NCBI GenBank assembly: GCA_008632985.1
Contig: QPGO01000212.1
Location: forward strand, 62,001-117,876
Source of the DNA: Psammoneis japonica
Lineage: Eukaryota
Length of the DNA: 55,876 bases
Direction of reading: 5' to 3'
How positions within the stretch are numbered: the stretch's first letter is position 1; every line of letters starts with the position of its first letter. Shown in pieces: positions 6,236 to 33,359 of the stretch. The translations under genes were made by a program, and so were the position numbers. The notes under the pieces were generated by a model. It saw only the letters and a list, made by a program, of their open reading frames with translations, had not been told where the DNA came from and ran no database searches.

Positions 6236-6262
6236 TTGGTTGGAGCGATCACGTCGGCGGCA

Positions 6263-12321: not shown

Positions 12322-12344
12322 GGGGTGATGACACCAGTGCAGAA

Positions 12345-13440
12345 TCAATGGAGGAACACTTGGAGGAAGAGGATGGTGTTGATGGTGTCTTCGAGAAATG
12401 GGCTGATGGCCAGCTGGCGGCAAAAGTCGACCCAAAGGTTCCAGTGGGCATCGGCGGCGGTGGATCGGGAAGAGGCAATGCCGCGTTGCACTGCGTCCTG
12501 CACAGCGCTGAGATCACGCAGGAATGCAGTGCGGGTGGCGGGGTCCACAGATGCCAAGACTTGTTCTGTGGACAAGCAGAGTTCAGGCAAGAAAGAAACG
12601 CGACGTCAGAGAGGTGTTGCAGGCGCGGAGCGTCGTCACCAGCACGGCTCCAAATGCCCGGGTGGCAATCATGGAGGCCGATGTAACGGTGTTGGCGTTG
12701 ATGGTGCGCTTGAAGCCTGAGGAGTTTTGAAGCTGGTTTGGCCGTGGTGGCAGATCCCTTGCGTTGCCAGTGCATGGTGCCAAGGTTGTCGGTGCGGTTG
12801 AGGTTGGTGCGCTCGCGGACATCGTAAGTGTCGGCAGCGGCGTGGGTGTGGACGACACTGCCGACGAGTTCAAGGTCGGTGTTGGTGATTGGGCCGTGTG
12901 GATTTTTGTGTGTGGCGAGGGAGTCCATGACATCCTTGGGGAATTGCAGGTGCCACGCTGTGGGCCTGGGTCACGTTGGGTGCGACGTCGACCAGAGGAA
13001 TGGCGCAGCTTGGCGGCTCGTGGGACTGCAGTGGGAGTTGGCACGAGCACCCCGCCCGCTCCGTGACCGGCAGCATCGTGACAACCGTGAACAGTTGGGG
13101 GCAGTGGTGCGAGCTCTTGGATGCGGATGGGACGTGAATCCAGGGATTGGCAGAGATTGCAAAAATCATCCAGTGTGGAATGTACGTTGGCCGCAAGATG
13201 GATGCGTGAGTCCGGTGTGGTGTGGCGGAGTGCCTCCTGCAATTCGGAGAACAGGCCTCGCGAGCCGGGCATGGCCACCGCGAGGGAACGTAATTCTCCC
13301 AGGAGTTTCTGATGATCTTGAACGGCAATGCGCTTGCATGAGCGGGGAAAGTCCTTGTAGAGTGTGTCGTGCAGTCGTGCGCGATGGCGTGGGGTGAGTC
13401 GGAGTGTCATCGACAGTGTGTCGATCAACCAACCTAACAC
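12345..13440 (-). pseudogene. RT thumb / RNase H and truncated YR start of the Ngaro/DIRS-like element
   Basis: LGWLIDT, LLGELRSL, HDAAGHGAGGV, ITNTDLELVG and RTDN, spread over two frames. Confidence 0.7.
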
Positions 13441-16400
13441 CTCTTTTTCTGTGTTGACCAGGTGGCGTCACCCTTGCGGAGCTTTTTAACAGACACAGGC
13501 TCCTTGTGGGCGGCAACGTTGTCCGCATCAGTGGGGTGAAACATGTCATCGATCGCGTGCAATGGCACATGATGCATGTTCCGTCGGGCTGCAGTGGACC
13601 CCTGCACGGCGCCGACAAAGTCATCGATGCATGTGTCGATGTGGGCTAAACGTCGGCGGCGACTCGGATTGAGGTGTGGATCTGGCAACGTTGGAACCAG
13701 CACGGCTGTTGTTGGGGGAGGTGATGTTGGTGGGGGTGCATGGGTGGGTGCGCGACTGGATGCCAATTGCTCCAACGGGTGGGGTGGCACCGTCCCGGCG
13801 CGTGCTGGCTGTAAGTTGGCTAGATCTGCCACCATCTCGGTGGCAGCGCTGAAGCACGGTGGCGAGTTTGCCCAGCCCATGGGCAACCGAGTGGGTGTGG
13901 CGACCAGCGGGGGTTCACCCGGCAAGTGTGGGAAAACCACGCCAAGTCGTTGGGCGCTGTCGGGATTGAGATGCATCTGACAGAAGCCATCCGCTAGATC
14001 AACCTTCATGAGGTAGACGTGACCGTGCGATGGGTTGGCCAGCAAAATGCGGCGCAACAACCGGTCGAGTGTGCGTCCGAACTGCATGGCTTCCATCGGG
14101 GTGTTTGGCTGAGTCGCGTCGTTTGTGCCGCAGAATGTACAGTCAACGATTGGTCGCGGCCGACGTCCACACTGGGGTGCTACGCCGATGGGGCTCAGCC
14201 GCAATCCGGGCATTCCCTTTATTTCCTCACATGGGAGGACCACCCAGAAACCCTTGTCGACGCAATCGGCCACATCCTCCCGGAGGAATTCAATGTGCTC
14301 GCAGGCGGACTTGTGTGGCCCCCTGGCCAAACTTGCTTCAAGCTCCTGAGGTGTCCATGGTGCATCTGCGAGGGTGATGGGGACACCGCGGTGTTTGCAG
14401 TTCCGCAGCAGCCTGTGGGCTGGGTGACCACGTGTGTGGCACAGCAGTCCCCAATCCCCTCTGCCACTGCGGTGATGCAACAAGTAACTTGGTCCTCCAA
14501 GGCGCAGCAAATTTGTGTCACGTAATGTGCGCTCACCTAATTTGTCAGTCTGCACAGCATTGGCAACAGCCTGTGTGCGTGATGTGCTGTGGTTGTTGCT
14601 GTCTGTGAATCTCTCCGCCTGTGGGGGTGGCGGCACTGCCAACAACACCGGTGGCAGCTGACATGGCTCTCGGCCCCGAGTCGCCGAACTCGGGCCATTG
14701 CCGATGACCTGTTCGGTCTTCCAATGCTCCGTCGCCCACGTGAGGAGGTTCGCTTGGTCGCTCTCCGCGTGGTTATGATGGTCAGCAACACAACCACAAA
14801 TGGAATTGCACTGCCCTTTCAAGTGGTGCGGGAGGCACCGTGGGTTTCCTTGCGCATCAACCGGCAGTGCGACTCTGTTCTGGGTGCAACGATGCTTCAC
14901 CTCGCGTGACCTCATGTTGGGACGGTCGCGGATGGCATTAAACCGTTCATCGCATTGGGGGTTGCGCACCAGCGTGTTGTCGCCCGGCACGCCTGGATGG
15001 GGATTTTGTGTGGTGCCACCCACTGGTTGTGACACCGCCGGGAGCATGGCAGCTGGGGCAGGTGCGCTCCCGGCCACCAATGTGATGGTCGGGGGCAACT
15101 TGCATCGCCAAGAATCGTTCCCCTTCGAAGCATCGCCGACCACCCGGCGCGCATGGAATGGAGCTGCAGCGTTGTAGGCTGTCTCCTGCAACCAGAACCA
15201 TGACATGAGCTCCACCTGCATGTGACGCTGGATGTCCGCAACTGGCATTGGGTTCCGTGAGCACTCCACAGCCAAGTCCTCGGCGCAGGTGTCCAGGTCC
15301 TCTCGTGAATCCACAAAGTGCCTGACCACAGGGTGACCCGCGCCAAGAAGGGTTGCCAGTGCGACGCGTGTGCTCTCCAAACAGCATTGGAGAGATTCGA
15401 ATGTGGTGGTTGCCCGAGCATCGTCTGGTGTTTCCAGCACCACAGTGTCGGCAAGACTGGGCCGACTGTCGCTGCCATGAATTTGGCAGCACATGGCAGC
15501 ACGGTGTGCAATCTGCTGCACTTGCTCCGGGGTCGTGAGGCCGAATTGATGCGGGTTAACTCCTTGCACGGGATCATCCCTGTTGTCCCCAGCGAAGTTG
15601 AAACTCATCAATTTTGACACCAAGCTGACAGTGACTGGGATGCGAAACCACACTCCCAGGGCGCGGCGTGTCTCATCCACTGCATTCTGGACCTCCGTAA
15701 TGCATCCCGCCTTGGAAGCCCGCGTGAGACGTGGCCACATGGGTGGCAGCTGATCCTCGGTGTACACTTGGCAGAGCCGCGTGAGCTTGTACACGCCCAG
15801 GTTGCCGAACGCCTGCACCGGCGTCTTTCCTTGTTCGGCTGCTCGCTGGCGAGCCTGCACGTCAATGCGTGACTGCTGTTGCTCAGCAGTGAGTCTGTCG
15901 ATTGCCCTCACCACTGGCGCAATGTGATGGGGCGGGAGAACTAGCTCGTTGCGTCCTGGCAGGTCTAGATTGACCTTCTGGTCGAAGCACCGAATGAGTG
16001 CCGAGTTCGGTGGTCGTGGCAAGACTGGCCAATCCCGTGTCACTGCAGACACGTTGGGGTCCGCCGCCATGGCAGTGCAAGCCACCTTGAGACAGTCCAA
16101 CAATGGGCGTAACGCGTCAACTTCATTCCTGGCAGTCACCGCTCCCAGAATTCGTGTGAACGCCTGCTTGGGCGGCAACCCCCCGGGAAGAAGCATGTTC
16201 ACGCAGGCGAAGGGGACATGCATCGTGAATCGTGTGCGTGCTTCTGCCGTGTTCGCTGCGTGGGGGTCCGCCGGGCCTGCCAAACCTTCAGGGTGCACCG
16301 TGATCTCCGTGGCCATCCTGGCGTCATCCAGGACAAATGCACCAGCGGCGGCGAGGCCCATCTCTTCCGGAGGGTGTGGTGCCACCGTGAGCTGGTTGGT

Positions 16401-16963
16401 GACCAGGTCCCCGGCTGGGGCATGGGTGTTTCTGTCCCAAGGCTGAGCGGGTCCAACAACAGTGGTCGGGTGGGTTGAAGCGCGATGATGCACTTGAACC
16501 ATCCCTTCATCCAGCACGCCCTGCACGCGGCAGAGGCACGTCAACGCCATCAGCACGTTGTGTTCCGATGCCGCAGATGCCCTCTGCGCTGGGGCTTGTG
16601 GGTTGCAGCGGGGATGGGCATTGCACACGGGCAGCAAAATCAATCATGGGCTCAGCATGGACTCCTTGGTGTGGGTCCTTGTTGTTCACCATGAAGCAAT
16701 CATGGCACGTCCTGAGGTTTCCCTGTTGTGGGATCTGGGCTGCGCCGGCTTGCTGCACTGGTTGGGCAGCTGCCTGTGGCTGTGCGCCCGGCCCCCCTTG
16801 TGGCGCTTGGCCTGCGGGTGCACCTGGTGGTGGCTGGGCCGGTTGTCCTGCTGGTGGCACAGGGTGCACCGGCGGAGGCGGCACATTTGGCGGTGGTTGC
16901 TGTGGTTGCCCGGGGCGGTTGCCCGCCCCCTTGGTTCACAGCGTTTGGTGGCTGGTTGTTCAT
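13434..16963 (-). pseudogene. Gag (C-terminal Cys/His finger) plus reverse transcriptase of the Ngaro/DIRS-like element
   Basis: Gag finger CLPHHLKGQCNSICGCVADH. RT motifs LSPIGVAPQ..RRPRPIVDCTF, KVDLADGFCQM, RLPMGWANSPPCF and TCIDDF (YxDD with Y->C). P/Q-rich N-terminal part lies in another frame. Confidence 0.8.
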
Positions 16964-17035
16964 GCTGCGAGTTGCGTCGACTTCTTTCTGCGATGGGGCA
17001 AAGACGGCGGAGGCATCCTGCGTCGAGGTCTTGTG

Positions 17036-17144
17036 GCGATTAAACTACACTGACGACAGCGGCTTGTCTTTGTCAATCTTGAAAGAATGAGACAAGCCGG
17101 TGATCGAGGAAAGAAAACAAACAACCCAACCTTTACAGCACGTT
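17036..17144. repeat. Terminal direct repeat, copy 1 (109 bp)
   Basis: Matches 12213-12321. Confidence 0.95.
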
Positions 17145-17544
17145 CAACGTGCATGCGTGGTTCAACAGGCAATGGGTCTTCTCCCCGATTCTGGCACTGG
17201 GTGAGGACAGTGCCCACGAAGATCGCGTTTCGGGCTTCGGGCAAATTGGTCCCAGTCCATGATGAGGCCGGCCATCCAGCAGTTCCTCCCAGCCAGATAG
17301 AAGAAGAAGAGAAAAGGAAAAGGAAGGAAAAAAACAAACATTGATGAAGGTTTGAAAGGGTGCGCTGCAGCACCGCAGTGCGCACAGCAGTGAAGACGGA
17401 CGCAGACAGGTGCAGACGCGCTGCGTGGAATTTGGTGCGAAGTGTCACACGTTTGCGTGCGCAGAAGGATGTGGATCACCAACGGCTGGAATGAAGCAGC
17501 ACACCACACAGCAGTCAGTGCAGCTCTGTCATCACGGCGCTAGA

Positions 17545-18999
17545 ATGGCGGAGGACAACATCGTTGCGTCTGGCAAAGCAGAGGATGCAGCAGCTCCGGA
17601 AGTCATGGCAGAAGTCACGGGCGCCGAAGGCGCGGCGGCAGCTGCCATGACTGCACTTGGCGCTGAGGGAAGTGCCGAGGGTGTGTCCGTCGAGTCCGAA
17701 TGCGCAAGGATGTCGGAGAAGCCGGCGCAGTCCCAAACTGAAAAGAGGGAGAAAGCCGTGCCGCCAGAGCCAACCTTTCAAATTTGTGGTTGGAATGAAG
17801 CACAGCAGCTGGGTCACACCGCCGAGCAGCTCCTTGAGGCCGGTTACAAGATCGAGTTGGTGGGTGATCAGGCCACCTTTGTGAAACCGGAGGTCCCACC
17901 TTTTTGCAGCGGCAAAAGCGAGGAGGCAGCCAATCCCGCGGCCAAAGTGGTCGCGAAAGCAACGGCGGAAGAGGAAGAAGAAGGAAAGCAATTTCCGGAC
18001 CCCAACGATCCGTCATTCGACTTGTGGGACTGGGTGTTGCGGCACGAAAAATCCGACAATTTCCAGGAGTCCATGTGCCTGATGAAGGATGCGCCGAACA
18101 ATCCCGACCTCTGGTTCCCCGCGCTGGGAGAACTGGGGTGCATCAGGAGCGACCCTGAAGCCGTCGCGAATGCTCACGGCGATCACTGCAAGTGGGTGTG
18201 GAGGTGCCGCACGGAAGTCGGCGAGAGGGGCATCCCAGACTCAACGCCGAAGAGCAACAAAGTGTTCAAGACCGCCGTCGAGGCTTTCAAAGCGGGGTGG
18301 TTGCTCGCACTGGTCCACCTCGTGAAGAGAGCAAGTGCAGAAGTGTGCACATTTGGATGAGGCGCTGTGTCACTTCAACCTGCGTTGTTTTGCCTCGAAA
18401 AGTCCGTTTGCTCCGCAGGCCCCAAGGAGGTGGAGGTGGGTGAGCTACGCGCATCGCAACGGAGGGGCACAGGCATTGGTTTTTTTGCTTTGCGCCAGTT
18501 CCAGAAAGGCAGCACGGTTGGAATCTACGTGGGCCCCAGGGTGCCCGGTGCGACGAGGAGCCACTCGTGGTGCGACCACGACAGCAAGTTTGGAGAAGAC
18601 CACAGCGTGTGCTGCTCCACCATCCGTGACAGCGAGGGCTGCCACGTCACAGTGGAGCCAAAACCGCTTGATTTTAGCGGTCCAGGGAACAAGAATTCCC
18701 ATCCACTCTGCCTCGGAATGCACTGCGTGAACGATGCCACCGAGTCGTTCAAGGACAAGAAGAAGATCAAGGCAAGCCAACACGTGGACAACAACTGCGA
18801 GTTCTACAATGACGGGTGCTTGGCAGTCACGAAGCGAATCATGCCCGGGGAGGAATTTCTCTGCAGATGCAACTTGGACGAATCGGAGAAGAAGAAGAGG
18901 AAGGTGACGTCAGGTGCCATGAATCGGAAGAAGAAATCGCGTCTACTCCCCAAGTCGGGGGGGAGAAGCTCTGCGTCTGGCAAAACGTTCACCGTGTAG
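17545..18999 (+). pseudogene. SET-domain protein (TE cargo) with an in-frame TGA at 18358-18360
   Basis: ORFs 17410-18360 and 18367-18999 are in the same frame. SET motifs: GIGFFALRQFQKGSTVGIYVG, LGMHCVND (NH motif region) and VTKRIMPGEEFLCRCN (cf. I.xGEEL..xY). Basic NLS-like tail. Confidence 0.7.
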
Positions 19000-19221
19000 T
19001 GTGCTCTGTAAATTAGCAGCACAGTGTGTTGGTGTTTTTCAGCGAAACTGCAGCATTAGTTGGAAAGGCGCAGCCCCAGTTGTGGCTCGAAAAATGGGAA
19101 CAAGGAAGAACAGAAAGTCGGTAAATTTGCGCAAACCCAGCAAATTAGCAGGTGCCTGCACAGTCGCCTGAGTGCAGAAAGTCAGTAAATTTACGCAAAT
19201 TTAGCAAGTTATTTTGTGCTG

Positions 19222-20655
19222 TCACAGTCGCCTGAGAATGGTCTCTTCCTCTAGAGAAAGGGGGATTGAATTGTCATTCTTGCCCACTGCAGCACTCTTC
19301 AGGTAGAGAGACACGCAGAAGAACTCGTCATTTGAGTTTGTCCTGCTGGAGATGCAGTGGCACTTGGTGGGGTTAAAAATGATGACATCACCAAGCCGGA
19401 GTGCAGCGGAGATGCCTTCGGTGGGGAAGCAGAAGTGCGCCACAATCCCGTCATTCATGGTGTGGCTGCCGGACGGAGGGACTCCCACCACGGTGACTGC
19501 TGACAGGAAGAAGTCCTGGTCCCGATGGGCATTGAGGAAGACATTGCGCCCAGCTGCCAGAGAGGAGAAAATGCCATCTGACCGCACCAGGGATTTCCAG
19601 TTGTGAAACTTTTTGACACGAGCGACACCCTTGAGGATGGCACAGTCCACGCACTCATTGACAAGGTGCTCCATGCGTGAAAGAAGTCTGGTGAGGTGGT
19701 GAGTGTGTTGGTCAGCTGTGCCAGGCTGCTTGCAAGAAATTCGAGCGTCTCTCGTGGCAGCCAGGCCAATCGTGGAACACTTGCTCCTGTCCGTCTCCAT
19801 GAAGGTAACGCGTTGTTTGCCGCGCACGGTGGACTGGGCGGTGCAGCATTCTAGTGCTTCGAGCGCTCGGCACTGAGCAACCAGTTCTGCTGGGTTGGGG
19901 GAGCTGAACACCACAGCAGAACGCGGCAGCAGGGTGCAGGTGTTGTCGCAGTGGCAACCGTCCAAGCCAAAGAAAGGCTTCAGATCGAGCACAGGGTCAC
20001 AGACGACCAGAGGAGCCAAATCGGCAAAGTCAATGTCAGCAAGACAAGGTGGCACAGGCTGAGTGTAGTCGCCGTTACAAACTGGAGTGCGGTTGGCTAC
20101 GCAGTGCATGGAGAGACTCTCAGTGGCGCACGGCGCGAGTGGAACAAGGCAAGTGATCTTGGATGTTTTCCCACTGGCGCGGCTGCGGATTCGCCTGCGG
20201 CTGCGGCGGGCCTTGCGAAGTGGCGGTTGAGCCCTCAACACGTTCTCGCACATCCTGGTGCGCATTGACGATGCGGTGTTCGCAGAGAACGTGTGTGCGA
20301 ACTTGCCGGTAAATGCTCCGCTGCTTGACACTGTCACTGTTGTCTCAACAGTGCCCAAAGCAGAACTCTGTCGACAGGGACCGGCGGACTCCAGGGGAGT
20401 GGGGTCAAAACCCAATCGAGAGATGTGTCTGCTTTCCGTTGCCTCAAGAGCACCCAAAGCAAAACTCTGTTGACAGGGACCGGCGGACTCCAGGGGAGTG
20501 GGGTTGAAACCCAATCGCGAGAAGCATTTGCTTGTTGCCAGGCTGCGAGCTGCACGTCCCAAACCCCCATGCTGTCGAGACCGGCTGTAACTCGATCGCG
20601 ACAAGTGCTTGTCGTTGGCAGGACGACGCAGCAAGGCACGAGGCAGTTGTGACAT
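19222..20655 (-). CDS. 2OG-Fe(II) dioxygenase, TET/JBP-like (TE cargo, TpA-mutated)
   Basis: HxD in NAHRDQDF; DSBH strands FCFPTEGISAALRLGDVIIFNP; distal His in KCHCISSR; terminal strand CVSLYLK. Spacing resembles transposon-associated TET/JBP domains, but the canonical 2OG-binding Arg is not obvious. Confidence 0.6.
   Translation of the reverse strand: MSQLPRALLRRPANDKHLSRSSYSRSRQHGGLGRAARSLATSKCFSRLGFNPTPLESAGPCQQSFALGALEATESRHISRLGFDPTPLESAGPCRQSSALGTVETTVTVSSSGAFTGKFAHTFSANTASSMRTRMCENVLRAQPPLRKARRSRRRIRSRASGKTSKITCLVPLAPCATESLSMHCVANRTPVCNGDYTQPVPPCLADIDFADLAPLVVCDPVLDLKPFFGLDGCHCDNTCTLLPRSAVVFSSPNPAELVAQCRALEALECCTAQSTVRGKQRVTFMETDRSKCSTIGLAATRDARISCKQPGTADQHTHHLTRLLSRMEHLVNECVDCAILKGVARVKKFHNWKSLVRSDGIFSSLAAGRNVFLNAHRDQDFFLSAVTVVGVPPSGSHTMNDGIVAHFCFPTEGISAALRLGDVIIFNPTKCHCISSRTNSNDEFFCVSLYLKSAAVGKNDNSIPLSLEEETILRRL
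20354..20522. repeat. In-frame tandem duplication (99-bp period) in the N-terminus of the dioxygenase ORF
   Basis: SRLGFNPTPLESAGPCQQS / SRLGFDPTPLESAGPCRQS. Confidence 0.9.
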
Positions 20656-22454
20656 GGTGTGTCTCAATTTGAAATGTGTTTCAAAATGTGATGACGGAAG
20701 TGTTGTCGCGTTGTTTTTGTCTCCGCGGAGGGAGGATCATCCCACGGCAATCTCAGTGCGAGTTCTCGCGTAGAAGTGAGTTGCGTGCCGTGCCAGCTCG
20801 TGCGTTTGAATTGCACGGATGTGCAAGTGCGGCAACGATGAGAAGCAGGCCGAAATTCAAAACAAATTTTATCACCTGAAGGCGTCTCATTGTTTCAACG
20901 CGTCCACATGTCTGTTTAAAATGACTTCATACGTCGCTCCACACGCAGGTAGAGGCAGCACGCCGCGTTTGAAAATTTCGCGCACACAGAGGGCGCGACG
21001 GCAATTTTACGCATTCTGCGCACGTCACAGTTTGGTTTGGAAATGCGACGTCTGGTTGAACCCGCTGCAAGCAAGGTTGATGTTGCCACAAGGTTGGACA
21101 CGATGAACCATCGTCACAGAAGTGTTGGGGAGTTTTGTCTTCAAACGGCTCCGGACTCCGCGTTCCAGAGCAGGCGTGTCTCCGGAGACGGAAGCGGATC
21201 TTCGCACGGCGGCGAAGTTGGCTTCGCTTTGAGCAGCGAAGTGTTTTTGAACGAACGCCTTCTTGGCGTGAATCACACCTGCGACACATCTGTCGACGAC
21301 GCGTTCCAGCCCTAGGTGGGACTCCGTGTGACATTGGGCCCGTAGAATTCTACGTGCGAGCTCCGCAGTGCGAGAATTTAATTAATGGATGTGTTTGTCT
21401 TCAACATCAAATAAACGGCCAAGTTTGTGGCACAATTATGCCTCTTGCCACTCGACGTTTTTGCAAATGCGCCTGCCCTACGCGATTCTCAAGACATTAT
21501 AGAATCGCGCTGTAACAAAAAATGTCAAAAGTTTTTGGACGGATCGCTCAACAAGTGTACCGTAAAATGACACAAAATATCAAAAAAATCACGTAGAAAT
21601 CTACGTGCGCGACATACGACGAGATTCAAAAAACTATCGATGTCACAGTTCAGCAGCACGAGGTCCCACCTAGACCTGGAACGCGTCCGACATGGGCGGG
21701 GGAGTTGCCGGACCCAGCATCGGGCTCAAGTTACTTCGTCGCCGTTGCACCGTGGTGAGCATCAAGGCCAACCACGATTGTCACCAAGAGGCTGTACGTT
21801 GGGCTCATCGTGCTGGCCTTCGCTCGAACGGCGGGTTGGAGTTGATCAACAAGTCATTCTTGGACGAGAGGCTGGCTCCTTTGTGGAAAAAGAAAGGACT
21901 CAAGGTGTTCTTCAACAACTGCAACTCCCGCATGGTCGACAACAAGAACACACAGCAGAAGGCAGAGGCGATGCTTTCGAAGTTGTGTCGTGCTGGGGAC
22001 CGTGGTGGTGGCGCTAGATCCGCTGTTCGCGTCATACGCGGGAGAGTGGATGTGCGAGTCCTTCACGGCGGATTGCCATGATGGCGACTTTTTGTGGCAC
22101 AGCGGAGACGTGAAACATCTCGTCTTCCACAAGTGCACCAAGAAAGAGGAGACTTCTCAGTCAACCAGCCAGCACATGCAACGTCCCACTCCGACACACT
22201 TGGAACGGAAGCACTTGCCCATCGCGAAACAGCCAATTTTGCTTGAGAACTCAACTGAACTGTTTTTTTGCCATCACTGCACCAGACGTCACACACTAGT
22301 TACTCCACTCAATTCGCCATTGCTTCGCGGCAACGACAAGTCATCGTCGGAGATGGCACACACTTGAAGAGACAGAGGAAAGCTGAGTTGCAATCGACAC
22401 TTAGTTTGCCAAACATTTGCAAATTTACACCACACCGGCAAAAAATAAAAAAAC

Positions 22455-23327
22455 TCAGTCTTCATCGCTGTCCTGAAGCACCAAGTCATCATCGACGTTC
22501 AGGTCAACTTCGCAGTTGAGCTCGACATCATCGTCAGCCTCTTCTCCAGCTTCTTCCACCGGAGCTCCAATGAGACGACAGAGTTCCACAGGCAACGACC
22601 CCTCGTAGAAGCAACTGTGAAGCAAGTTCTTGTTTTGGGCGCACCAACCGATGTGAAACTGACCACCTTCCTTCTGAAGCTCGGTGAGCGCCGCCTCGTT
22701 GCTGATCACTTCGGACCAAACAGCACCCTTCATCCAGAAGAAGTCATCTTCAACGAAGACCTCGGTGTTGTTCTCAGGGTCATCGTTGAGCTGCTTCGCA
22801 ATGCACTTCCCGAGGCCGCGCACTTTAGCATCGGTTGGGACTTCTTCGAGGAAGATGAAGAAGAGACACACGGCGCAGTTCTTGGCGTTCGTCTGCAACT
22901 CGCCTTCGTGAACCCACCTGCCAGCGCAAGGGTGGAATCCGACTTGAACCGCCCATGGAGTCCTGCTGCGAAGGTTGTCAAACAGAACCTTCTCCGACCA
23001 AACATTGGTTGAAAGGGGATTCTTGGCTTGGAGACGAAAAACGATGCCTTTCTTGCGGCCGACAGTGACGGTGGCGCAGCACAGGAGGGCGTCCTTGTTG
23101 GAATGGCTGCCATCGTCAGAACCGGCGGATTTGGAAAGCTTGAACCCGTGCTTGGCAAGGTGGTCTTCCGGCTTGAGGTCGTCGTCGGTCAAGCCGTTGG
23201 TCTTGCGGGGCGGACTTGGTTTCTTCAACAGAGCATCAGAAAACTTCATCTTTGCCTTCTTCTGTTTGGTTTCGGCGACTTTGGCTTTCGCAGCCGGGGA
23301 GGTTGTTGTGTTTCTTTTGCGTGCCAT
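22455..23327 (-). CDS. Unknown protein (TE cargo) with basic N-terminus and acidic C-terminus
   Basis: Natural-looking ~290 aa ORF from MARKRN; Tyr-poor and Cys/His-rich; no recognised domain. Confidence 0.45.
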   Translation of the reverse strand: MARKRNTTTSPAAKAKVAETKQKKAKMKFSDALLKKPSPPRKTNGLTDDDLKPEDHLAKHGFKLSKSAGSDDGSHSNKDALLCCATVTVGRKKGIVFRLQAKNPLSTNVWSEKVLFDNLRSRTPWAVQVGFHPCAGRWVHEGELQTNAKNCAVCLFFIFLEEVPTDAKVRGLGKCIAKQLNDDPENNTEVFVEDDFFWMKGAVWSEVISNEAALTELQKEGGQFHIGWCAQNKNLLHSCFYEGSLPVELCRLIGAPVEEAGEEADDDVELNCEVDLNVDDDLVLQDSDED

Positions 23328-24149
23328 CGAATCAGTCGGAGAGAAATTGTGGGAACAAAAAGTGCGATCGTTCAGAAGTGCCAAGAAAGACCCAGCAGAG
23401 CTGCGCACATCACACCAAGGAGAACTGGCAACGTCAGCAACTAGATCCAAACACGTCGAACTGCAACAAGGCAACCTTCCAGGTGTCAGCACTTGCAAGT
23501 GGTGTGTGGATTCAATTTGAACAAAACAGATGCAAGGATCGGAGCACGCAAAGTCGCACTGAGTTTGCTGAAAATGCGCAAAATCACGTGCAATTCCGTC
23601 TGTGCTTCGTGTGCATTTCAGCCGTTGCTGCCGCACGGCCATCGCGCACGAAATCTAGTCGCCAAACGGTCGACGCCATCGCTGTCACTGCACACTGTGC
23701 CGACAGTTAGCCAAGGTGGGCCCATCACCCATTTGGAGGATTCGCGCGCACTTTGGAAACACGAATGATGTCAATCGCACTGTCATTGCCACACGACTAA
23801 CTCAGCTGCCCCGCCACTCGTTAAAGCGTGATTCTACGGAATTTGCGCAAAGCTGCGCCCACCACCAAGATTGCCGAAACAACTTGAACAAGATCCGAAT
23901 CTTGCCCCATGGAATGCTCAGAGCAGACGGTCGAAACAACTTGAACAAGATCCAAATCTTGTCCCATGGGATGTTCAACGTCGACGAAACTAAGCAGGAC
24001 ATCACACGTCGAGTGCGAAGAAGGACGTGGGAGGAACGCACACGTCACTCTTCCGTTGAGGTGAAAGAGGCACACTTTCATCTCACTTTTTTGTGACAGA
24101 ACCTTTGCGCAAAGGGAAACGAAAAGCATCCAACTGTGGTGATTGGGCC

Positions 24150-24830
24150 ACACCGATCGCAGTTCTCAGTTCTCACAGTGACCTGGTGACGCAGGTTGTG
24201 AGATGACGCACAAGCTCAGCTGCGGTGACTGGATGACACCAGTCGCAGCTCTCACAGAGACCTGATCGCACAGGTTGTGAGAACACGACACAACGCGGCG
24301 GTGATCAGACAGCACCGACGCAGTTCGTCAAGCAACTGATTCACTTGGCTGCGGTGACTGGACGACACCAGTCGCAGCTCTCACAGCGACCTGATTGCAC
24401 AGGTTGTGAGTGAACAACACAGCGCTGCACCTTGCAACGTAGGTTGTGAGACAACGCACAAGCTCAGCTGCGGTGACTGGACGACACCAGTCGCAGCTCT
24501 CACAGAGACCTGATCGCACAGGTTGTGAGAACACGACACAACGCTGCGGTGATCAGGTGGCACCGATGCAGTTCGTCAAGCAACTGGTTGGCTCGGCTGC
24601 GGTGACTGGACAGCACCAGTCGCAGCACTCACAGTGACCTGACAGCACAGGTTGTGAGAAGACGACACAGCGCTGTGGTGAACGGGTGGCACCAACGCGG
24701 TTCGTTGATCAACTGGACAGAACCACTGCAGTGACTGGACGACACCAGTTGCAGTGCTGCAGGTGGTGAGAAAACACACATCGCTGTGGTGATTGGATGG
24801 CACCGATCGCAGCTTCACGGTGATCGCACT
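24150..24830. repeat. Array of repeated stem-loop modules upstream of the Rep/helicase
   Basis: Repeated gctgcggtgactgg-acgaca-ccagtcgcagc and ctcacagagacctg-atcgca-caggttgtgag hairpins, about 4-5 copies each. Confidence 0.85.
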
Positions 24831-24899
24831 GAAAAAACAACCATTTTTGCTGAGCAACTTCTTGAAATTTGTTGAGTCAAAGTGTCAGCTTAAATTAAA

Positions 24900-27800
24900 A
24901 TGGACGAGGCCAACTCCCGTGTTTGCAGTGCAATCAATGGAAAGTTTGAGATGCTTTGTCCACACAGAGACGGAGAATTTAGACCACACGCATGTTCAGT
25001 CTGTGACGTTCTGCTGAAACCTAGAGAAGTTTGCCACTTGCCGCTCGAAACATTGGAATCAGCAAGAAACTCACTCACCCCTTCAGACTGGAACAGCGTG
25101 TCTGATCGTCTCAAGTCCTGCTGCACTGCAGAGCATGAAGATGCTGATTGGATCAAAGACCTGCCACTTTCTCCCCGCGCCCAATGCGTGGCACAGCAAG
25201 ACAGACGACGCGTCGACGGATTCACTTGCTGCAGCGAATGCCGAAGAAGCCTGGGAAGAGCCGTCACGCCAATGTGCGCGACAGCGAACAACTGCTGTTT
25301 CGGCACCCCGCCGCACGAACTGTTGTCACTGACCAAAGTGGAATTGGCAATGCTCACACCAGTGAAAACATGGGGATGCTGCTTCAGTTGCCTTGGCGGC
25401 AAACAGAAGAAGCTTCAGGGAAGTCTGACGTGCTACAAAGTCAAGATGCAAAGCATCGCAAGAACTGTTGTGCACTTCGACGTGCTGAATTTACATCAGA
25501 ATGTGATTGCACTGATGACTGGAAAGATGACTCCGGAGCAAAGACAACTTGCACGTTCAAAGAACAGAATTAGGACGCACCACATGCTGAGGGCGATGGA
25601 ATGGCTGTTGTGCCACAACCAAGAGTGGGTGCACCAACAGATGAATCTAGACGAAGCCAGGCGCAATCTGCGGAATCCCGCACTTGTCGACAGCACCAGC
25701 AAAGAAGAAGGAGAAAATGCGAGTGTTGAGACCTCAGAGTCATTTCACATTTACTTTCCTGATGGAACCATGTCTCCTGCGACCGGTGGTCAGTGCAACC
25801 TGGACTGCTTCAAAGATCTTGTGCACGAAGCTGCTGCCAACGGATTTGATTTAGAGGTGCAAGCACCGTTGTCTAAAGAATCTGCGAGTGATTTCAAAGG
25901 CAACAACTTCATCAACGCGTGTCTGCTGCAGTTTCCTTTTGGCAGAGGAGGAATCAATGAGACGAGAATGAAGAAAGACGGAAGTCTTACAGACAGCACC
26001 AACCTTGCACACTGTGCCGACCACTTGGCATGGATTTCCCAGCCTCACTTCCATGAGCAGCTCTTCGTGTTAATGTGCTGCAACTTGACAATGAATCAAA
26101 GGATGCCACAGAGCGCAGGGTGGAAAGTCAGGGACAAGAATCAGGCTGCACAGTTTGCAAACGAACTGACAGTGGACGATGTGGACAGAGCTGTTTGTGA
26201 TCGCAACTTGGGCAAGAGAAGAGATCATGGACTCGGGCACCACTTTTTGTGCGCACTCGACGTTGCATCTGCGTCTCTGCCACACAGCAACAAAGCAGCA
26301 AAGAAAATGAGGAGAAACGCCGAAACTTGTCAGCATCATTTTGGTCAGGGTGGCATTTTCTTAACCGTCAGTCCGGACGATGCAAATTCGTTTCTAGTGC
26401 AACTGCACTCGGGTGTCATCCTGGACCCAAACGAAGACGTGACACAACTGACGGACGAAATTCTTGCCAGCAGGGCTGAGCAACGTAATGAACTGCATCT
26501 AAAGTTTCCCGGTCTAACAGCCTTTGCATTCGAGTGCTTGTTTGACATTACAACAGAAGAGGTGGTGGGTTGGGATCTGAGTGCCAACCAACCAAGAGAA
26601 AACTTTAACTTCTACATTGGCAGGCCAGCCACATTTTTAGCCGCAGTTGAGGAGCAGGGACGTCTGACAGTTCACGGACACATGCAGATCTGGTTTGCAT
26701 CGATCAACAATGCAAGAGAGAAACTGCATTTGCCAACAAGACAGATCCGATGCGAAGGTGCTGAGCACCTTGCCAACACAGTTCAGAAGATCTGCAGCAC
26801 GGAATTAATCTGCAGTGAGGACTTCAGCACTGGCGCGTTGCGCGAAGCATTCGATCATGACTGTGCAGCACCAAACATGTGTCGCACCTCTCCAAAAGCA
26901 GCAGACGACCAACAGCTAAGAAACCTGAGGCACAAAGACGGCCAGCAGTCGAAGAACGGAATGTTTGCTCATTGTCGTCACTGCACCAAGTGCTGGACAA
27001 ACGTCGAGTTTGTAGAAAGCTTTTTGCAGTCACGGCACCGTGCACCTGGCCTGACTCACTGTCCAGACAACCATGCAAAGCGACTAAAAGCAATGTGTGT
27101 GCAACACCAGCGAAGTGGTCCGCAAGGGACAATGGAGGCATGTGTGCCGGACGCAGCTTGCAACCATCACATGCACGTTACGAAGTCGTGTTTTCCCAAA
27201 TGCGCAGAGTTACGTAAAATGCGTAAAAAAACCCCACACGAGGAACTGGACACGCAGTCAAGGAAAAGGAAACGAGAGGAGCTCAAACTGGGTGACTGCC
27301 GTCACAGGCAACCAGCTGCTTCGTGTCCAAATGATTTGGCAAGGAACGCAGATGACACTCAGATAAAGTGGTTCAGCTGGGATGGAACTTTCACGTGTCG
27401 GCACGTGAAGGAAGTTGTTCCGAAGAGGAGAAAGTGCGATGCTTTTCAAAACGTGTCGTGCCCTGCAACAAGCAGATCAAAACTGACATGCAACACAAAC
27501 ATTGCTTTGTTGATGCCTGGACCATCTGCTCAGTGCACGATTGAGCACATCCTAAAAGATGCCCAGAAAGATGATGCTGCATCGTACGACGAAGTGCTTC
27601 GAACTGTGAACAGGACAGTGACGGAATTACGGAAACACGCATCTGATGCATCGGAAGCAATCAGACGTCTCATGTGGGATGCTTGCTCGCATGACAAGAC
27701 GAATGTCATTGGACCACCACTTGCGTCTTACACAACAAGGAATGGAAGCCGTTTCATCGAATCTCATTTGACCGCATGGTGCCCCTTGAAAGACATTGTC

Positions 27801-30424
27801 AGCACACTAGAAAGAGACGAAGTGTCTGCGACTGTAGCCCATTTTGGCGATGCACCGTTCTTCCAATGCCAGGCCTTGCACTGCCCATGTCGTCCAACAG
27901 CACTGGAGAATCTCAGTCCGTTTGCATTTTTTAGTGAGTGCAAAGTTCTTCGCAACACAAGGAAAAACGAACACGGCATGATGATGTTCGATGACAGAGC
28001 GCACAGGCACCCGTCTCACAATTCAACGAAGAACAAGTTTCTTCAAGGTGTCAGACAGCGACAGCAACCGCGATTGTTAAAAGCACTTCAGCATGATTTT
28101 CCTGATGCAGCCAAGTTTGGCAGTTGCCTTGTAGATCCGCAGCAACCAACAACACCAGACAAAGAATTGTGCTGCAAGTTGGCACTGGCCTTGTTTGCGC
28201 CTTGCAGAACAATGACGGAACTCAAACCAATGACCCACACATGCCTGTGTGAATTCCAACTCTCCGCAGTAGTCGGTGTTGTTGCAGAGGAAAACTTGAA
28301 CTTCTTGCAGAACCTGCAGGATGCCAAGTCCAACTGCCTTCGTCTCAAAAGTACATCTGACGATCTGCAAAGAAAGACGGAGCAATTTAGACCTGCTGAC
28401 GTTGCGTTTGACTGTTGCGAAAGTGACAAGGAAGAAGGTCTTTCAGGCGCCGTTCAGGGTCAACTGCTGGATGCACTCTTGGAAGAAATGGCAGAGCAGC
28501 CAGAAGACGATGACATTGGGTTGAGCGACCAAGCAGTCATTCCTGCGCATTTGAGCGGTAAACGTGCAAGACAGAAAGGTTCACACATGGGTGGTTGCAA
28601 ATGCTTGGCAGACATGCACACTGACCCACCAAACGAGGAAAGCCAGGTCAATGAACGACAACTTTTTGAGAATCTAGAGGGCGGCGATGACACCGACGAG
28701 GAAGACCAGAATGAAGGATTGCAACAACACATCCACAGCAGACCACTGTCAAGAGACGACATTGTTCGAGTGACACTGACTAGAACGCAAAGAACAAGAA
28801 GGTCGTTTGAGGACACAACAGGTTTGGAAGAACACGTCGATGTACGTCAAGCAAACGGATCTGCAGCAAGTGTCGTAGACTGGGCTAGGAAAGCAAGACT
28901 GGACAGGCAACAGCAGCGTGCCTTTGAAATTCTAGCAGGAACCTTTGTGCTCACTTGCTGCCAAGACGCTCTTCAAGATGAGACGTCACGCAATGGACTC
29001 AATGGGAGAAACAGCAGACACGAATTCGCAACAAACCTTCACCGATTGAAGAAACTCGTGGAAGTGCAAAGACGCAGAACGTTGCAACTTGTGTGTTTTT
29101 TACATGGTGCAGGTGGAAGTGGCAAATCAACCACAACAGACCTTGTCGTGGAATGCGGAAGAGAGCACTGCTCGCTTGTTGAGCAGCCGTTCACAACAAG
29201 CACAATCAGAACAACTGTCTGACCAGAGTGGCTGCGACCATTCTCAAAGGGGACACAATCCACCGAGTTGCACACCTCATGAGAAGAAAGCAAACAACCG
29301 AAGAGCAAATTGAAGCATGGTCAGACACGAGACTTTTGGTGGTAGACGAGATTTCTTTTGCAAGCAAGAGAGAACTAGAAAAACTCCATGAGAATTTAAC
29401 AGCATTGAAGAGCGAATTGAGCAAGCCGCACGGTGGTGTGAACATTGTTTTCGCAGGTGACCTCAGGCAACTAGAACCAGTCGGAAAAGGAGTGAAACCA
29501 CTGTGCAAAGATGTGTGTCCCGAGTTTCACGAGTGGATCAACTGCCACATAGAACTTCGTGGTGTACACAGGTTTAAAGACGATCCATCATGGGGAAAAC
29601 TGCTCAAGAGATTCCGCACTGGCAAGATTACAGTTGACGACATAGAGTGCATCAACGAACGAGTGGTTCAGAACGAAGATGATCTGCCCAGTGACCTCCA
29701 CCATGCCACGCACGCAAACAAGGACAGAGATGCAATTGACACTGGCCTGTTCGAAAAAAGAGCAGAAACACTGCACAGAAGAGATGGAGACGTCCTTGAC
29801 TCAATGTTGATTTTCAGTGACGACTTGCAGGTGCAGAATGGCACGAGACTCTACCAACCATTTCCGGTTTACAACAGCTTCTGGAACAACTGTGGTGAAG
29901 GAGACGTCGTCATGCAATCAGGAAGAATGGATCCAGTCTTGCGAATTTACAGAAGATGCAGAGTCATGACACCTTTCAACGAAAATGTGGCAAACGGTCA
30001 AGCAAACGGAACGCAAGCCACTGTTGATGAGGTCGTTCTCAAACCAGGACAGGAACCAAGACTGGTGACTTTAGACAACAACATTGGCATTCCTGCTGCA
30101 CTTGCCAGTCAGGTAGACCACGTTGCATTGGAACACTGCAACAAAAGCATCGACCCCGCGAAGTTTTTAGTTGAGCCAAAAACAAATGCTTTCAGGGCTT
30201 GCATCGCCAAGCCCAGCCTAATTTTAGAAGAAGGCGACAAACAAAGGCACACTTTCCAACTGAAGGCAACCCAGCTGCCGTTTGTAATCAACAATGCCAC
30301 TGCAGGGCACAAACTGCAAGGGAGTGGAGTCCCGCAGTTGTTTGTGCACTCTTGGAGCTACACTCAGAATTGGGTGCATGTTGTGCTCTCCAGAGCAAAG
30401 ACCAGAGAAGGGCCATTCATGTGA
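24900..30424 (+). pseudogene. Helitron-type (Helentron/Helitron2-like) Rep-PIF1 helicase; frameshift at ~29220
   Basis: Rep: ANN..FG.PP.EL..LT..E, FG..GIFLTVSPDD, HUH motif VEEQGRLTVHGHMQIW, and YxxxY-like motif mutated to QCTIEHILK. Helicase: GAGGSGKST, VVDEISF, AGDLRQLEPV, HRFKDD, NGTQA, QLPF..NNATAGHKLQG, HVVLSR. Confidence 0.85.
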
Positions 30425-30696
30425 AAGCCACCAAGCAAGGACCTGCAAAAATGCAAGGTCCCAGAAGGCTATGAAGCCTTGACAAGACTCATGAAGGAGA
30501 GAAGCGCCACGCATTTTTCTCAGCAACAGTGCGCAGAAATGTCAATGCAGTGCGCAAACATTGGGTTAGGATGCTCAACCACTGCACAACTGTTTGGCGA
30601 CCCCAACCGTAAAAATGCGGAAATTTCGTAAAATGGGGTGTTTCGATTAGATCAGCACATTGCGCAGAAATCCACACATGTGTCACACAACATCGA

Positions 30697-31167
30697 ATGG
30701 ATTTTAACCAACAAACCAAGAAATGCGAATGCAACCATCACAGCAAACGTAGCAATGGAGAAAACATGGATTTGCAACAACAAACAAAGAAGGCAGACAA
30801 GCCAAAGAAAACTGGTGAGGACAAGAAAAAGGTGCAGACACGTGCGGAACTTCTTCAGTCATTGATGAATGAGGAAGACGAAGAGGAGATTACCCTGGAA
30901 GAAGCAAGAGCGGCGTTTGACCTCACTTCGGGAAATTTTGATGTCACTTCTGCACTTGTGCAAGACAACACGACAGCGGACAGTCATCATGTGGAAACAA
31001 CGGTCGTGCCCAAGGATGGTTCAACCATGGAGGAGCTAAAGGCAGCATGTGCAGCGGCGATTCCACAGCGGTCGGGGAGATTTTTCACCGAGGAGGAGAT
31101 GGCGGAGCAGGAGAAGGAGCAAGCAAAGTCCCTTCAGAAGAAGCTTGGCCAGAAAGAATGGAGTTGA
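30697..31167 (+). CDS. Small charged hypothetical protein (TE cargo)
   Basis: 156-aa K/E-rich ORF with no Tyr, directly after the helicase. Confidence 0.3.
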   Translation: MDFNQQTKKCECNHHSKRSNGENMDLQQQTKKADKPKKTGEDKKKVQTRAELLQSLMNEEDEEEITLEEARAAFDLTSGNFDVTSALVQDNTTADSHHVETTVVPKDGSTMEELKAACAAAIPQRSGRFFTEEEMAEQEKEQAKSLQKKLGQKEWS

Positions 31168-31653
31168 GCAAATTGCAAATGACTGTTTGGCAAAGACAAC
31201 CGCATCAATGCGTAAAACACACACACATGGACTTTCACTTGAGCCGCCGCGGATTGAGTGTGGCCACAAATGAGGACCAACCATTTGTGGCAAAGAAGCT
31301 GCAACAATGCGCAAATTTCGCACATTTCCACACTCACTTAATCCAACGCAGCTTGCCTTAGACAACATCAACATGCACAACTAGACAACATCAATGTGCA
31401 CAGACAGCCTCATGAAACCTCACAGAAGACAGAAGGGTCAGAAGCAAAACAACCAGCACCACGCACTGACGCATGTTAGTCATGTCGCGTGGGTCGCGCA
31501 AAAGTGCGCACCGAAATAACCGTTATGTGTTATAATTAATTCGAACGCCCGGCGCAAAATGCAGCAAAATGATTGGTGCAGGCAATCGTCATGGCTCTAT
31601 TTTCTGATAGTAGCGAGGGCGGCAATCCAAAATCTTTCGGTTTCAGACTTCGA

Positions 31654-31817
31654 TCTAGAGAGTTCCACCTAAAAGAGGAGGAACCAATACGACGCCTCCT
31701 CTCCCTCGCTCTCTCTCTAGTAGAGAGAGTACGGTACATGTAGGCCCTACTCTAGCTAGAGTAGGTCGTAGGGCCTGCCAGAGAGGAGAGAGGCGTGGAA
31801 CGGTACTCTAGCTAGAG
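31654..31817. repeat. Fold-back / palindrome cluster
   Basis: Perfect 20-bp palindrome cctactctagctagagtagg (31746-31765), near-palindrome ctctctctagtagagagag, and outer arms gttccac/gtggaac. Confidence 0.7.
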
Positions 31818-32000
31818 ACAAGAAAAAAGCTGCCGTTAGGTAGTCGATGATTCGAATCAGCGTTTCTTTCCGCACCTATCATAAAGAAATGAACAACTTT
31901 CAGACCATCGCGGAGTGACAGCATGAAGCTAAGATCAAAGAGGGAGGGTAACTGGGTTGGGCTTGCGGTGAATCGTTTTATGTTTAGTCCTCTGACAATT

Positions 32001-33118
32001 CTACTTTGTCAAAACAGCAAGGTATCCCTCGTTTTCGTTCTCTACCGGCCCTTGTTGCAACTCCAGCCCAAGATCCATATCGATCAAATCTTGTTCGGTG
32101 GGGAGCCCGCTTTGAACCATGACAGGGTTTGCTTTTTGCTGCCCCAGGACATGTGCGGCGCCTTGTGGGTGGACAATGACAAGTTTCCCTTGTGGCTTCA
32201 ACAAGGAGGCGGCTCTCTTTAGCGCTTTTTGTGCGTTTGGTAAATCGTGAGGGACGAGCAAAAGAGTATTCCGTCGAAAAAGCCCTTGTCGCTCTCGAAT
32301 TCATCAATCGGTTGTAAAAAGTCCGCAGAGATAAAGGTCGGACCACGGTGTGTACGTTGAGCATTTCGAATCATTTCTGGAGATAAGTCAACTCCATAAA
32401 TCTGTTTGGCTGGCACTCCGGCCTTTGTCAGAGACGGTATGAGAACGCCCGGTCCGCAACCTACATCCAAGCACTTGCCGCTACTCCCAACCGCATCGGC
32501 AATGATGGAGCATGCGTAATCGACCCGTTCTTGTATCTCGGCTGGCATGTTTCCTATTAGAGCACGGGCGGCCTTTGCATCAGCCGATGCATCCCAAGTG
32601 AGCCTTTGGAATAGGTTGTGCAATAGCTCGTCTGAAAGTTCTGACGGATGTTGCTCATAAAGGGTCTGTAGCTGTTCCTTGGCACGTCTCGCGCCCTCCA
32701 TATCTTGGGGAGGTAATTTTGTCTGTTGTAAGATTGGTATCTTCGCAATGTATGCATCCCATCGTTTTACTTGCTGGTATAATTGAGCAGCTATCTGAAC
32801 ATGCTCTGGCAGTTCGCTCATGGCTTTCTGAATACGTTCCGATGTACCACGAGTCACATCACCACCATATTGATCCAACAATTGTTCCTTTGCGCGCTTG
32901 ATGTCCTTGGTACTCTTCTTCTTTTTTGTGCCGGAGCTCTTCCCAAAGCCTCCACCTGCACCGCCTCCAAATCCCTGGGCACGCAAGACAACAAGACGTC
33001 GTGTTGATGTCGTCAGAAAACCTGGTGATGTCTGCCAAATCCGTGACGTTAAAAAGCAAAACACACCGTTGCTAGAACCGAAGCCCAGCAATACTATAAA
33101 AAACACAGAGTAACGCAT
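32001..33118 (-). CDS. Class I SAM-dependent methyltransferase, likely plastid-targeted; apparent 1-bp frameshift at ~32250
   Basis: LDVGCGPG, GVDLSPEMI, and FDGILFCSSL|HDLP...LLKPQGKLVI across the shift. Signal peptide MRYSVFFIVLLG followed by a transit-like region and GFGG. Confidence 0.8.
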
Positions 33119-33359
33119 GGCGGGTCCGATCTCATGGATGATTTGTAATGATGAACGATGGACGGTGGAGGGCCGCACCACATTGGCATCGATCGCACAT
33201 CACACATCATCCACATCACAATCACACATCACACATCGCGCATGCACGCGCTCATAGACGAGAGACGAGAACTACGGTAACAAGCAGCAGGCGCATGATG
33301 TTGTCGTCTACCGGCAGGGGGGGAGGAACGATCGGCACAAAGCAGCAGCCACACATCTG

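Follow-up and report, generated by a model that had tools for sequence, protein, structure and literature searches.

A TpA-depleted locus of Psammoneis japonica with a Helitron transposase, a TET/JBP-like dioxygenase gene and a tentative SET-like gene

Introduction

In basidiomycetes, a linkage of TET/JBP genes with KDZ and Plavaka transposases was reportedly noted by Iyer et al. in 2014. TET/JBP genes are also described within complete Helitron1 and Helitron2 transposons of rusts, Pezizales and Agaricus, and the divergent transposon-borne TET/JBP proteins of fungi escape ordinary sequence models (Kojima 2025, PMC12730594). Here we describe a 55,876-nucleotide stretch of a Psammoneis japonica contig (QPGO01000212.1, positions 62,001 to 117,876; hereafter the window), the centre of which contains a Helitron-type Rep-helicase (RepHel) transposase, a gene for a TET/JBP-like 2-oxoglutarate (2OG) and Fe(II)-dependent dioxygenase, a probable small SET-domain open reading frame (ORF) and further ORFs of no recognised family. 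The explanation that we favour, with considerable room for doubt, is that this region is one degraded copy of a multi-copy Helitron-family transposon of about 14.4 kb that carries an accessory module. TET-carrying Helitrons are already published for fungi, so that the general idea is not new and the finding is confirmatory; if correct, it would bring transposon-borne TET/JBP genes, and TET-carrying Helitrons in particular, to a eukaryotic lineage other than the fungi, with a SET-like partner gene in addition.

The locus shares several features with the fungal TET Helitrons as these are described (PMC12730594): a RepHel transposon has a separate gene for a TET/JBP-type dioxygenase, the dioxygenase is recognised by its structural likeness to CMD1, CcTET, NgTET and TET2, and a role in evading methylation-based silencing is proposed. 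It differs from them in that the host is probably not a fungus, and in that the dioxygenase has an HxD motif and hence is not of the HxE 'PE type' (the other types of that account being PU and AG). The window also adds a SET-like gene and an ORF at 22455–23654 to what that account presents, and its copy has been inactivated by TpA hypermutation and not by repeat-induced point mutation.

A further point of comparison is the red-algal Plavaka accessory-gene (PAG) cassette, which moves between transposon superfamilies and has tandem inverted repeats nearby (bioRxiv 10.1101/2025.02.11.637652). As in the window with its SET-like gene, a SET gene, a gene for a 2OG-dependent oxygenase and a gene without assigned function occur together with tandem repeat arrays near them. 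The PAG3 oxygenase has a PhyH-type structure as its best match, whereas the window dioxygenase has TET, and neither the N6-methyladenine (6mA) methylase domain of PAG2 nor the ParB-like domain of PAG3 was detected in the window, the two systems being compared by description. According to the same preprint, 2OG oxygenases and SET proteins are among the genes that Helitrons have captured. SET genes are also carried by HarbingerS and MuDR transposons of Phytophthora (cited in PMC12730594), which resemble the window in having a SET-like accessory gene and differ in transposon superfamily, the SET assignment in the window being tentative. A literature search found no description of the present element, and a prior report of the exact combination of Helitron, SET and 2OG oxygenase may exist.

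Results

The Helitron transposase

The transposase is encoded in two frames of the plus strand. The ORF at 24894–29222 contains the N-terminal part (24900–29222, the Met at 24900 aligning with the start of the homologues), with a DUF6570 domain (Pfam, 7.3e-12), a Rep domain (Helitron_like_N, PF14214, 6.5e-9; 36.7 bits against a cutoff of 28.9) and a Walker A motif, and the PIF1-type helicase part lies in a separate frame at 29183–30424 (PIF1, PF05970, 4.9e-12; AAA_30, 3.2e-9). There are 111 homologues, mostly of 1850–1950 amino acids and with the identical domain set, the closest of which has 49% identity. A Rep-PIF1 helicase had been read from the sequence before any database search, and these matches bear it out; together the two ORFs can be read clearly as a Helitron transposase. 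Directly upstream of its start is a tandem array of about 620 bp (24181–24804), with a period of about 129/248 nt, some 2.5–5 units and short internal palindromes. Relatives of RepHel and of the dioxygenase described below were sought in a viral-contig scan, and none were found for either.

The present copy is damaged. The HUH motif is kept as HGH, with H594-G-H596 aligned to the invariant HxH of 19 homologues. The catalytic QY..KY of Rep reads QC..EH in the window; the seven homologues shown all read QY..KY, and Tyr makes up at least 90% of both catalytic columns in the alignment of 19 homologues. The loss of both tyrosines fits mutation of the present copy (TAY to TGY or CAY, see below) and not a lack of homology. 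In addition, there is a frameshift within 29190–29222, just past Walker A. For comparison with other copies we used one public sequencing run (X1), which contains 47% of the sampled words and gave 8039 contigs on 12001–32000 at ≥80% likeness. Because one X1 contig leaves the window sequence after position 29210 and reads in frame through the following helicase motif, V-T-A-L-T-G-V-A-A, less damaged copies of RepHel probably exist.

The TET/JBP-like dioxygenase

The dioxygenase ORF reads leftwards (19222–20736, minus strand; 504 codons, with a possible start at Met28) and contains its catalytic domain at 19225–20064; a 99-bp tandem duplication (20339–20533) is located in the non-conserved N-terminal part. 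A word-based search found 11 relatives with 30–46% identity, and a profile search of 1.84 billion representatives returned 1395 clusters at E≤1e-3, 1031 at ≤1e-10 and 433 at ≤1e-30. In an alignment of 141 sequences (domain numbering) H180 and H236 are invariant, and D182, D184, Y254, K256 and others are at least 90% conserved, such that the HxD...H triad noted from the sequence alone consists of residues that are invariant or nearly so. The window protein keeps all of the conserved catalytic residues and the N-terminal motif of the family.

An AlphaFold2 model made from the 141-sequence alignment has a beta-rich core (pLDDT 90.5, pTM 0.88); a model from 12 sequences only (pLDDT 56.5) was discarded. 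Searched with Foldseek against the PDB, it has CcTet (2.5e-8), CMD1, TET2 and NgTet1 as its top matches, down to 3e-6, with prolyl hydroxylases (P4H) next, from 4e-6. With VIA-align the top 16 rows are all TET2, NgTet1, CcTet or CMD1 (Z 16.5–13.2), the best being TET2 at 16.5 (249 residues, root-mean-square deviation 4.2), NgTet1 at 14.9, CcTet at 14.3 and CMD1 at 14.2; the next family follows with OsALKBH1 (12.3), ABH3 (12.2), AlkB (12.1) and FTO (11.8), a lead of 2–4 Z units for the TET group. The predicted structure supports a TET/JBP-like assignment by fold, with nucleic-acid-modifying enzymes as the best matches throughout, as the sequence-only reading had suggested, and the first places do not go to a family that acts on other substrates.

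At the sequence level some observations weigh against the assignment. The ORF has no Pfam match, Tet_JBP (PF12851) included, even at E≤10; among its relatives Tet_JBP matches two of 12 at E≥0.061, and two of 50 at an E of about 0.003 (17 bits against a cutoff of 34.9). The family conserves an S-x-Y-x-K motif (Y254, K256), and the 2OG-binding basic residue appears to be this Lys, unlike the Arg that has this role in TET proteins. Sequence-profile searches of the PDB gave no meaningful match. A family with at least 1395 clusters at 50% identity and a TET-like fold is thus missed by current Pfam models, and represents a pool of candidate DNA-base-modifying enzymes.

Genomic context of the dioxygenase relatives

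The surroundings of the family were sampled in one metagenome scan, with 65 loci encoding dioxygenase relatives (labelled L). At 11 of these, a convergent ORF of about 950 amino acids, belonging to one cluster, lies next to the dioxygenase relative, and both of the cluster members that were scanned match Pfam Plavaka (1.7e-11 and 6.9e-7). This is the kind of linkage known from basidiomycete TET genes with KDZ or Plavaka transposases, and the window differs from it in that its sole transposase is RepHel. None of the SET, pre-SET, unknown, Rep, helicase and reverse-transcriptase ORFs of the window has a counterpart by tblastn at any of the 65 loci. When 56 large ORFs of these loci and a further 266 of 120–399 amino acids were scanned with Pfam, neither a SET nor a Helitron domain appeared. 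A conserved linkage of SET, dioxygenase and RepHel, by which the sequence-only reading could be judged, does not hold among these relatives, and the cargo is therefore a lineage-specific acquisition and not a conserved partnership. The dioxygenase family is typical transposon cargo of the TET/JBP-Plavaka kind, and its combination with RepHel and SET is specific to the present genome or lineage.

Conversely, no KDZ or Plavaka transposase was matched by Pfam among the window ORFs, and a tblastn search of 356 ORFs from the 65 loci against the window found no transposase remnant; the three matches outside the dioxygenase are at chance level (E 0.005–0.01), and none of them comes from a transposase ORF. 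The earlier remark that no KDZ transposase is visible here therefore stands.

Several other ORFs at these loci are of interest in their own right. Ten of the 65 (L004, L009, L013, L017, L018, L030, L040, L041, L042 and L046) contain a common ORF of 1000–1250 amino acids without a Pfam match beside the dioxygenase relative, which ORF may be an undescribed transposase class that carries a TET-like gene. Core-histone-fold ORFs (Pfam Histone, 1e-35) are found a few kb from the dioxygenase relative at L009:7146–7745 and L040:548–1192, both loci of this ten-member group, and L009 and L035 contain zf-MYND ORFs. In L005, L007, L010, L015, L029, L043, L055 and L061 the dioxygenase relative is directly preceded by a Zn(2)-Cys(6) binuclear-cluster domain (fused to it in L010), an indication that the Plavaka-linked subgroup has an N-terminal exon for DNA binding.

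The SET-like ORF and other open frames

A probable small SET-domain ORF of 212 codons, with no ATG at its start, lies on the plus strand at 18361–18999, convergent with the dioxygenase gene. It is preceded in the same frame by an open frame of 334 codons (17356–18360, plus strand; the pre-SET ORF), which has no Pfam match at E≤10 and ends with a TGA at 18358–18360; its first part, to 18182/18191, is kept in the deletion-derivative contigs described below. The Pfam SET profile (PF00856) is matched over positions 1–102 of its 105, with E 0.035 and 14.9 bits against a cutoff of 22.4, and this failure to reach the threshold counts against a SET gene. In an ESM Atlas look-up, which provides a lead and not an alignment, 19 of the 30 feature matches are SET clusters (143–195 amino acids) with scores of 0.95–0.96, a score that about one in 100 shuffled proteins attains, and the language-model features resemble those of small SET proteins of haptophytes and giant viruses. 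A word search found no relatives of the ORF, and phmmer against the PDB returned only chitinase-like noise and MECOM at E 1.8. Of the SET gene first read here, the ORF itself and a match across the profile stand, and the identification is tentative, with a sub-threshold score, no sequence relatives, no ATG and an in-frame stop before it; we regard the call as weak but plausible, and a SET gene as likely.

The third ORF of the putative module (22455–23654, minus strand) has 399 codons, or 290 amino acids if it starts from the Met at codon 110, with a basic N-terminus and an acidic C-terminal tail. It has no Pfam match, no Atlas match and no relative in the 65 loci.

Because loss of TpA also erases TAA and TAG stops, the lengths of these ORFs have to be judged against shuffled sequence. 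In 200 dinucleotide shuffles of 17264–24893 the longest ORF averages 240 amino acids, with a maximum of 436. The ORFs of 504, 399 and 334 amino acids are beyond chance, the 399-codon ORF being longer than the second-longest ORF of any shuffle (maximum 355) and the 334-codon ORF longer than the third-longest (maximum 260). The 212-aa SET ORF taken alone is within chance, as 75.5% of the shuffles have a longer top ORF.

Evidence for a single mobile unit

The sequence-only reading proposed a single large rolling-circle transposon that carries its own modifying enzymes, and the X1 contigs favour such a unit of about 14.4 kb. One contig joins position 17263 to about 31689 and skips 14,425 bp across A|T; the 13 letters in between match 31689–31699 with a 4-nt indel. 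The putative whole mobile unit, with boundaries inferred from this joint, is 17263–31687 on the plus strand (14,425 bp). Two other contigs join 18182 to 30572 and 18191 to 30576 via a common filler, and look like internally deleted derivatives that retain both ends. Summed X1 depth, which does not equal copy number, is 2436–5225 in 20 of 22 bins over 17337–32000, compared to 246–850 on the retroelement to the left, and rises at the left edge from 850 (bin 16670–17336) to 3056 (bin 17337–18003). Two long contigs, with some 97% identity to the window, are very close in depth, at 1068.9 for the one in ORF 22455–23654 (22495–22787) and 1023.6 for the one in RepHel (26020–26437), and contigs of a single variant have depths of about 26–38. 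No second copy of the element was found within the window.

A number of points tell against this reading. The X1 contigs are short and placed at loose identity, and each joint is seen in one contig and could be spurious, in addition to the limit on summed depth just given. The ends of the unit read TG... and ...CCAA, and not the canonical TC...CTRR, and the hairpin near the 3' end (31662–31684) is no better than those of shuffled sequences (z -0.92; 32 of 200 fold as well). The last 190 bp or so before 31687 are not TpA-depleted, and X1 depth remains high past 31688, such that another repeat abuts the element. The proposal of one rolling-circle transposon with modifying enzymes thus gains from the contigs, and loses in that its TpA-poor block is no evidence for it (see below), its SET gene is tentative and its termini are not canonical. 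On balance, SET, dioxygenase, ORF 22455–23654 and RepHel rather probably form one multi-copy mobile unit of about 14.4 kb.

The unit has itself been the target of an insertion. A miniature inverted-repeat transposable element (MITE) of about 359 bp is located at 21315–21673, with inverted ends GGTGGGAC...GTCCCACC and TA flanks on both sides. It coincides with a depth spike (27,890 and 118,816 in the bins of 20672–22005) that exceeds the depth of the element around it about 30-fold, and contig ends and joints cluster at 21293–21688. It is a later insertion, as it is TpA-rich inside a TpA-poor element, and the MITE family is apparently very abundant and either younger or untargeted. When the MITE is removed, the ORFs 21081–21314 and 21674–22081 are in one frame.

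TpA depletion and loss of tyrosines

In the chlorarachniophyte Bigelowiella natans, de novo mutations in integrated viral DNA are nearly all at TpA, to TpG or CpA, and the genome has 124 clusters of TpA-poor, CpA- and TpG-rich windows in which transposon-type domains are enriched; the enriched TpA-depleted coding sequences include DDE endonuclease and two reverse-transcriptase families (bioRxiv 10.64898/2026.01.13.699255). The window shows the same TpA depletion and CpA/TpG excess in kb-scale blocks over transposon- or virus-derived DNA. It differs in that the chlorarachniophyte process was measured on giant-virus and virophage insertions, and Helitrons and TET or SET cargo are unmentioned in the abstract and Results of that preprint (bioRxiv 10.64898/2026.01.13.699255).

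Values of rho(TpA) per kb are 0.03–0.38 for 12–31 kb (0.07–0.38 over 17–31 kb) and 0.03–0.18 for 33–46 kb, compared to 0.50–0.64 at 46–56 kb, and CpA and TpG are in excess where TpA is depleted. At 100-bp resolution the first TpA-poor block begins at about 12.0–12.2 kb and ends at about 31.5 kb. The sequence-only reading had relied on one continuous TpA-depleted block; the depletion is real, and the block of 12.0–31.5 kb includes an unrelated retroelement and recurs at 33–46 kb, so that depletion spans at least four unrelated insertions (12000–31500 and 33000–46000). A continuous stretch of TpA-poor sequence therefore does not speak for a single element.

A change of TpA to TpG or CpA predicts that Tyr codons become Cys or His (TAY to TGY or CAY). 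Tyr columns were defined as at least 70% Tyr among 19 RepHel homologues for Rep and helicase, and at least 50% in the dioxygenase alignment. In these 35 conserved columns the window has Cys in 17, His in nine, Phe in four and Tyr in five, and the earlier suggestion that Cys and His stand for ancestral Tyr is well supported, with 26 of 35 positions now Cys or His. The columns divide into 23 in Rep (15 Cys, four Phe, two His, two Tyr), eight in the helicase (five His, two Tyr, one Cys) and four in the dioxygenase (two His, one Cys, one Tyr). Other conserved residues in the Rep alignment (F, W, R, D, N, Q, P and H) are retained at 84–100%, for example W at 9/9, Q at 20/21, H at 16/17 and F at 31/37. 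The direction is patchy, with Tyr to Cys prevailing in Rep (15 C, 2 H) and Tyr to His in the helicase (5 H, 1 C), which suggests strand-coordinated mutation clusters. An element-wide strand bias of TpA mutation had been considered as a test of unity and was dropped, the bias being patchy in this way. The replacement of Tyr by Cys or His is a protein-level read-out of TpA hypermutation, the catalytic Rep tyrosines included, and shows how such a defence disables a transposon.

We note that CpG rho is 0.57–1.18 in the TET-bearing element and 0.14–0.49 in the transposable-element block of 34–46 kb. This contrast is suggestive and a mere correlation; the TET-less retroelement at 12–17 kb is likewise without CpG depletion (rho 0.70–0.91).

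Proposed mechanism and alternatives

In the proposed element RepHel would occupy the 3' half, with the SET-like gene (rightwards), the convergent dioxygenase gene (leftwards) and ORF 22455–23654 (leftwards) upstream, and the tandem array before RepHel. Rolling-circle transposition of intact copies would be driven by RepHel. From their families, the dioxygenase would oxidise a methylated DNA base, most likely 5-methylcytosine (5mC) and possibly 6mA or T (a choice of substrates that follows CcTet, CMD1 and JBP within the family), the SET protein would methylate lysine, and both enzymes would act on the element's own chromatin against host silencing; the tandem array presumably has a role as well. 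A host process changing TpA to TpG or CpA has struck the present copy and the adjoining unrelated retroelements alike. Judging from its lesions, the window copy cannot be active, as the Rep tyrosines are lost, the helicase is frameshifted, a stop precedes SET and a MITE is inserted.

We also speculate on a more far-reaching version, which we consider quite improbable, in which the locus would record a two-layer arms race between a protist Helitron's anti-silencing cassette and host TpA hypermutation. The cassette would consist of the SET-like gene, the TET-like dioxygenase gene, which belongs to a large clade that lacks a Pfam model and is elsewhere carried by Plavaka-type transposons, ORF 22455–23654 and the repeat array as a possible binding site, and would keep the CpGs of the element unmethylated. 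The host would answer by a methylation-independent, TpA-directed adenine-to-guanine hypermutation, and the removal of Tyr would kill the tyrosine-dependent Rep nuclease.

The most serious competitor to a single Helitron, unlikely in our estimate and yet to be reckoned with, is that independent elements are juxtaposed or nested, the cargo at 17.3–24.1 kb being a transposase-less cut-and-paste remnant (Plavaka/KDZ-like or other), next to or inserted into a Helitron proper that begins near 24.1–24.9 kb. Such a history would agree with the company kept by the dioxygenase relatives, which is a Plavaka-type transposase at 11 of 65 loci, the ORF of 1000–1250 amino acids at ten, and RepHel at none; this last count is also a point against the unit as a whole. 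Nesting is moreover proven in the window by the MITE (21315–21673) and the retroelement (12213–17144), TpA depletion does not tell elements apart, and a canonical Helitron 5' end is absent at 17263. It does not account easily for the two contigs that link about 18.18 kb to about 30.57 kb, for the joint that removes 17264–31688 as a block, or for the near-equal contig depths of ORF 22455–23654 and RepHel given above, and RepHel is the only transposase remnant within 17.3–31.7 kb. Gene capture by Helitrons is well established, and a single Helitron in which SET and dioxygenase genes hitch-hike without a role for the element would be in keeping with this frequent habit and with a linkage that is not conserved among the 65 relatives. 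We hold such passive capture to be very doubtful: the dioxygenase ORF is complete and not a fragment, with all of its catalytic residues and the N-terminal motif, its family is transposon-borne elsewhere, and the presence of two chromatin- or DNA-modifying genes parallels the red-algal cassette of SET and 2OG oxygenase as described (bioRxiv 10.1101/2025.02.11.637652).

The possibility that there is no SET gene, with 18361–18999 a chance frame in TpA-poor DNA and the dioxygenase the only real cargo, bears on part of the module and is an unlikely one. The length of 212 amino acids exceeded by most shuffles, the sub-threshold Pfam score, the lack of relatives, with PDB phmmer noise only, and the missing start codon are all as expected of such a frame. 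A Pfam match to nearly the whole SET profile is not, nor are 19 SET clusters among 30 Atlas matches at scores rarely reached by shuffled proteins, nor a position in the same frame as an upstream 334-codon ORF that is itself longer than chance.

The setting of the locus and neighbouring elements

Host-type genes are present at both ends of the window, and its centre is a transposon pile-up. The ordinary genes are an alpha/beta hydrolase at 7.3–8.2 kb, subtilase fragments at 9.1–11.7 kb and DNA polymerase epsilon exons at 46.5–52.7 kb. Immediately to the left of the putative unit is a retroelement encoding reverse transcriptase (12213–17144), bounded by 109-bp direct repeats at 12213–12321 and 17036–17144; its reverse-transcriptase ORF is at 13434–16643 on the minus strand, with a weak RVT_1 match, and its GC content of 0.58–0.63 is higher than that of the neighbouring Helitron-type element. 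The direct repeats are just 109 bp long, and minus-strand ORFs of the element (12062–17144) cross the left one. A simple long terminal repeat (LTR) element, the end of which would explain the joint at 17263, was rejected on this ground, and the architecture is perhaps DIRS-like. The 33–46 kb block contains a copia-type element with RVT_2 and repeats at 39391 and 44477.

An Rfam scan of 17000–32500 at E≤0.1 gave no match. In the non-depleted gap between the TpA-poor blocks, the ORF at 32219–33199 on the minus strand encodes a class-I S-adenosylmethionine methyltransferase domain (Methyltransf_25, 1.5e-10), and is probably a host gene. Near the left end of the window, 2754–7200 is a 4.4-kb element with 50-bp inverted repeats at its ends (86% complementary) and a 781-aa ORF with a DUF7869 domain, flanked by 10-bp and 20-bp tandem arrays at 2985–3590.

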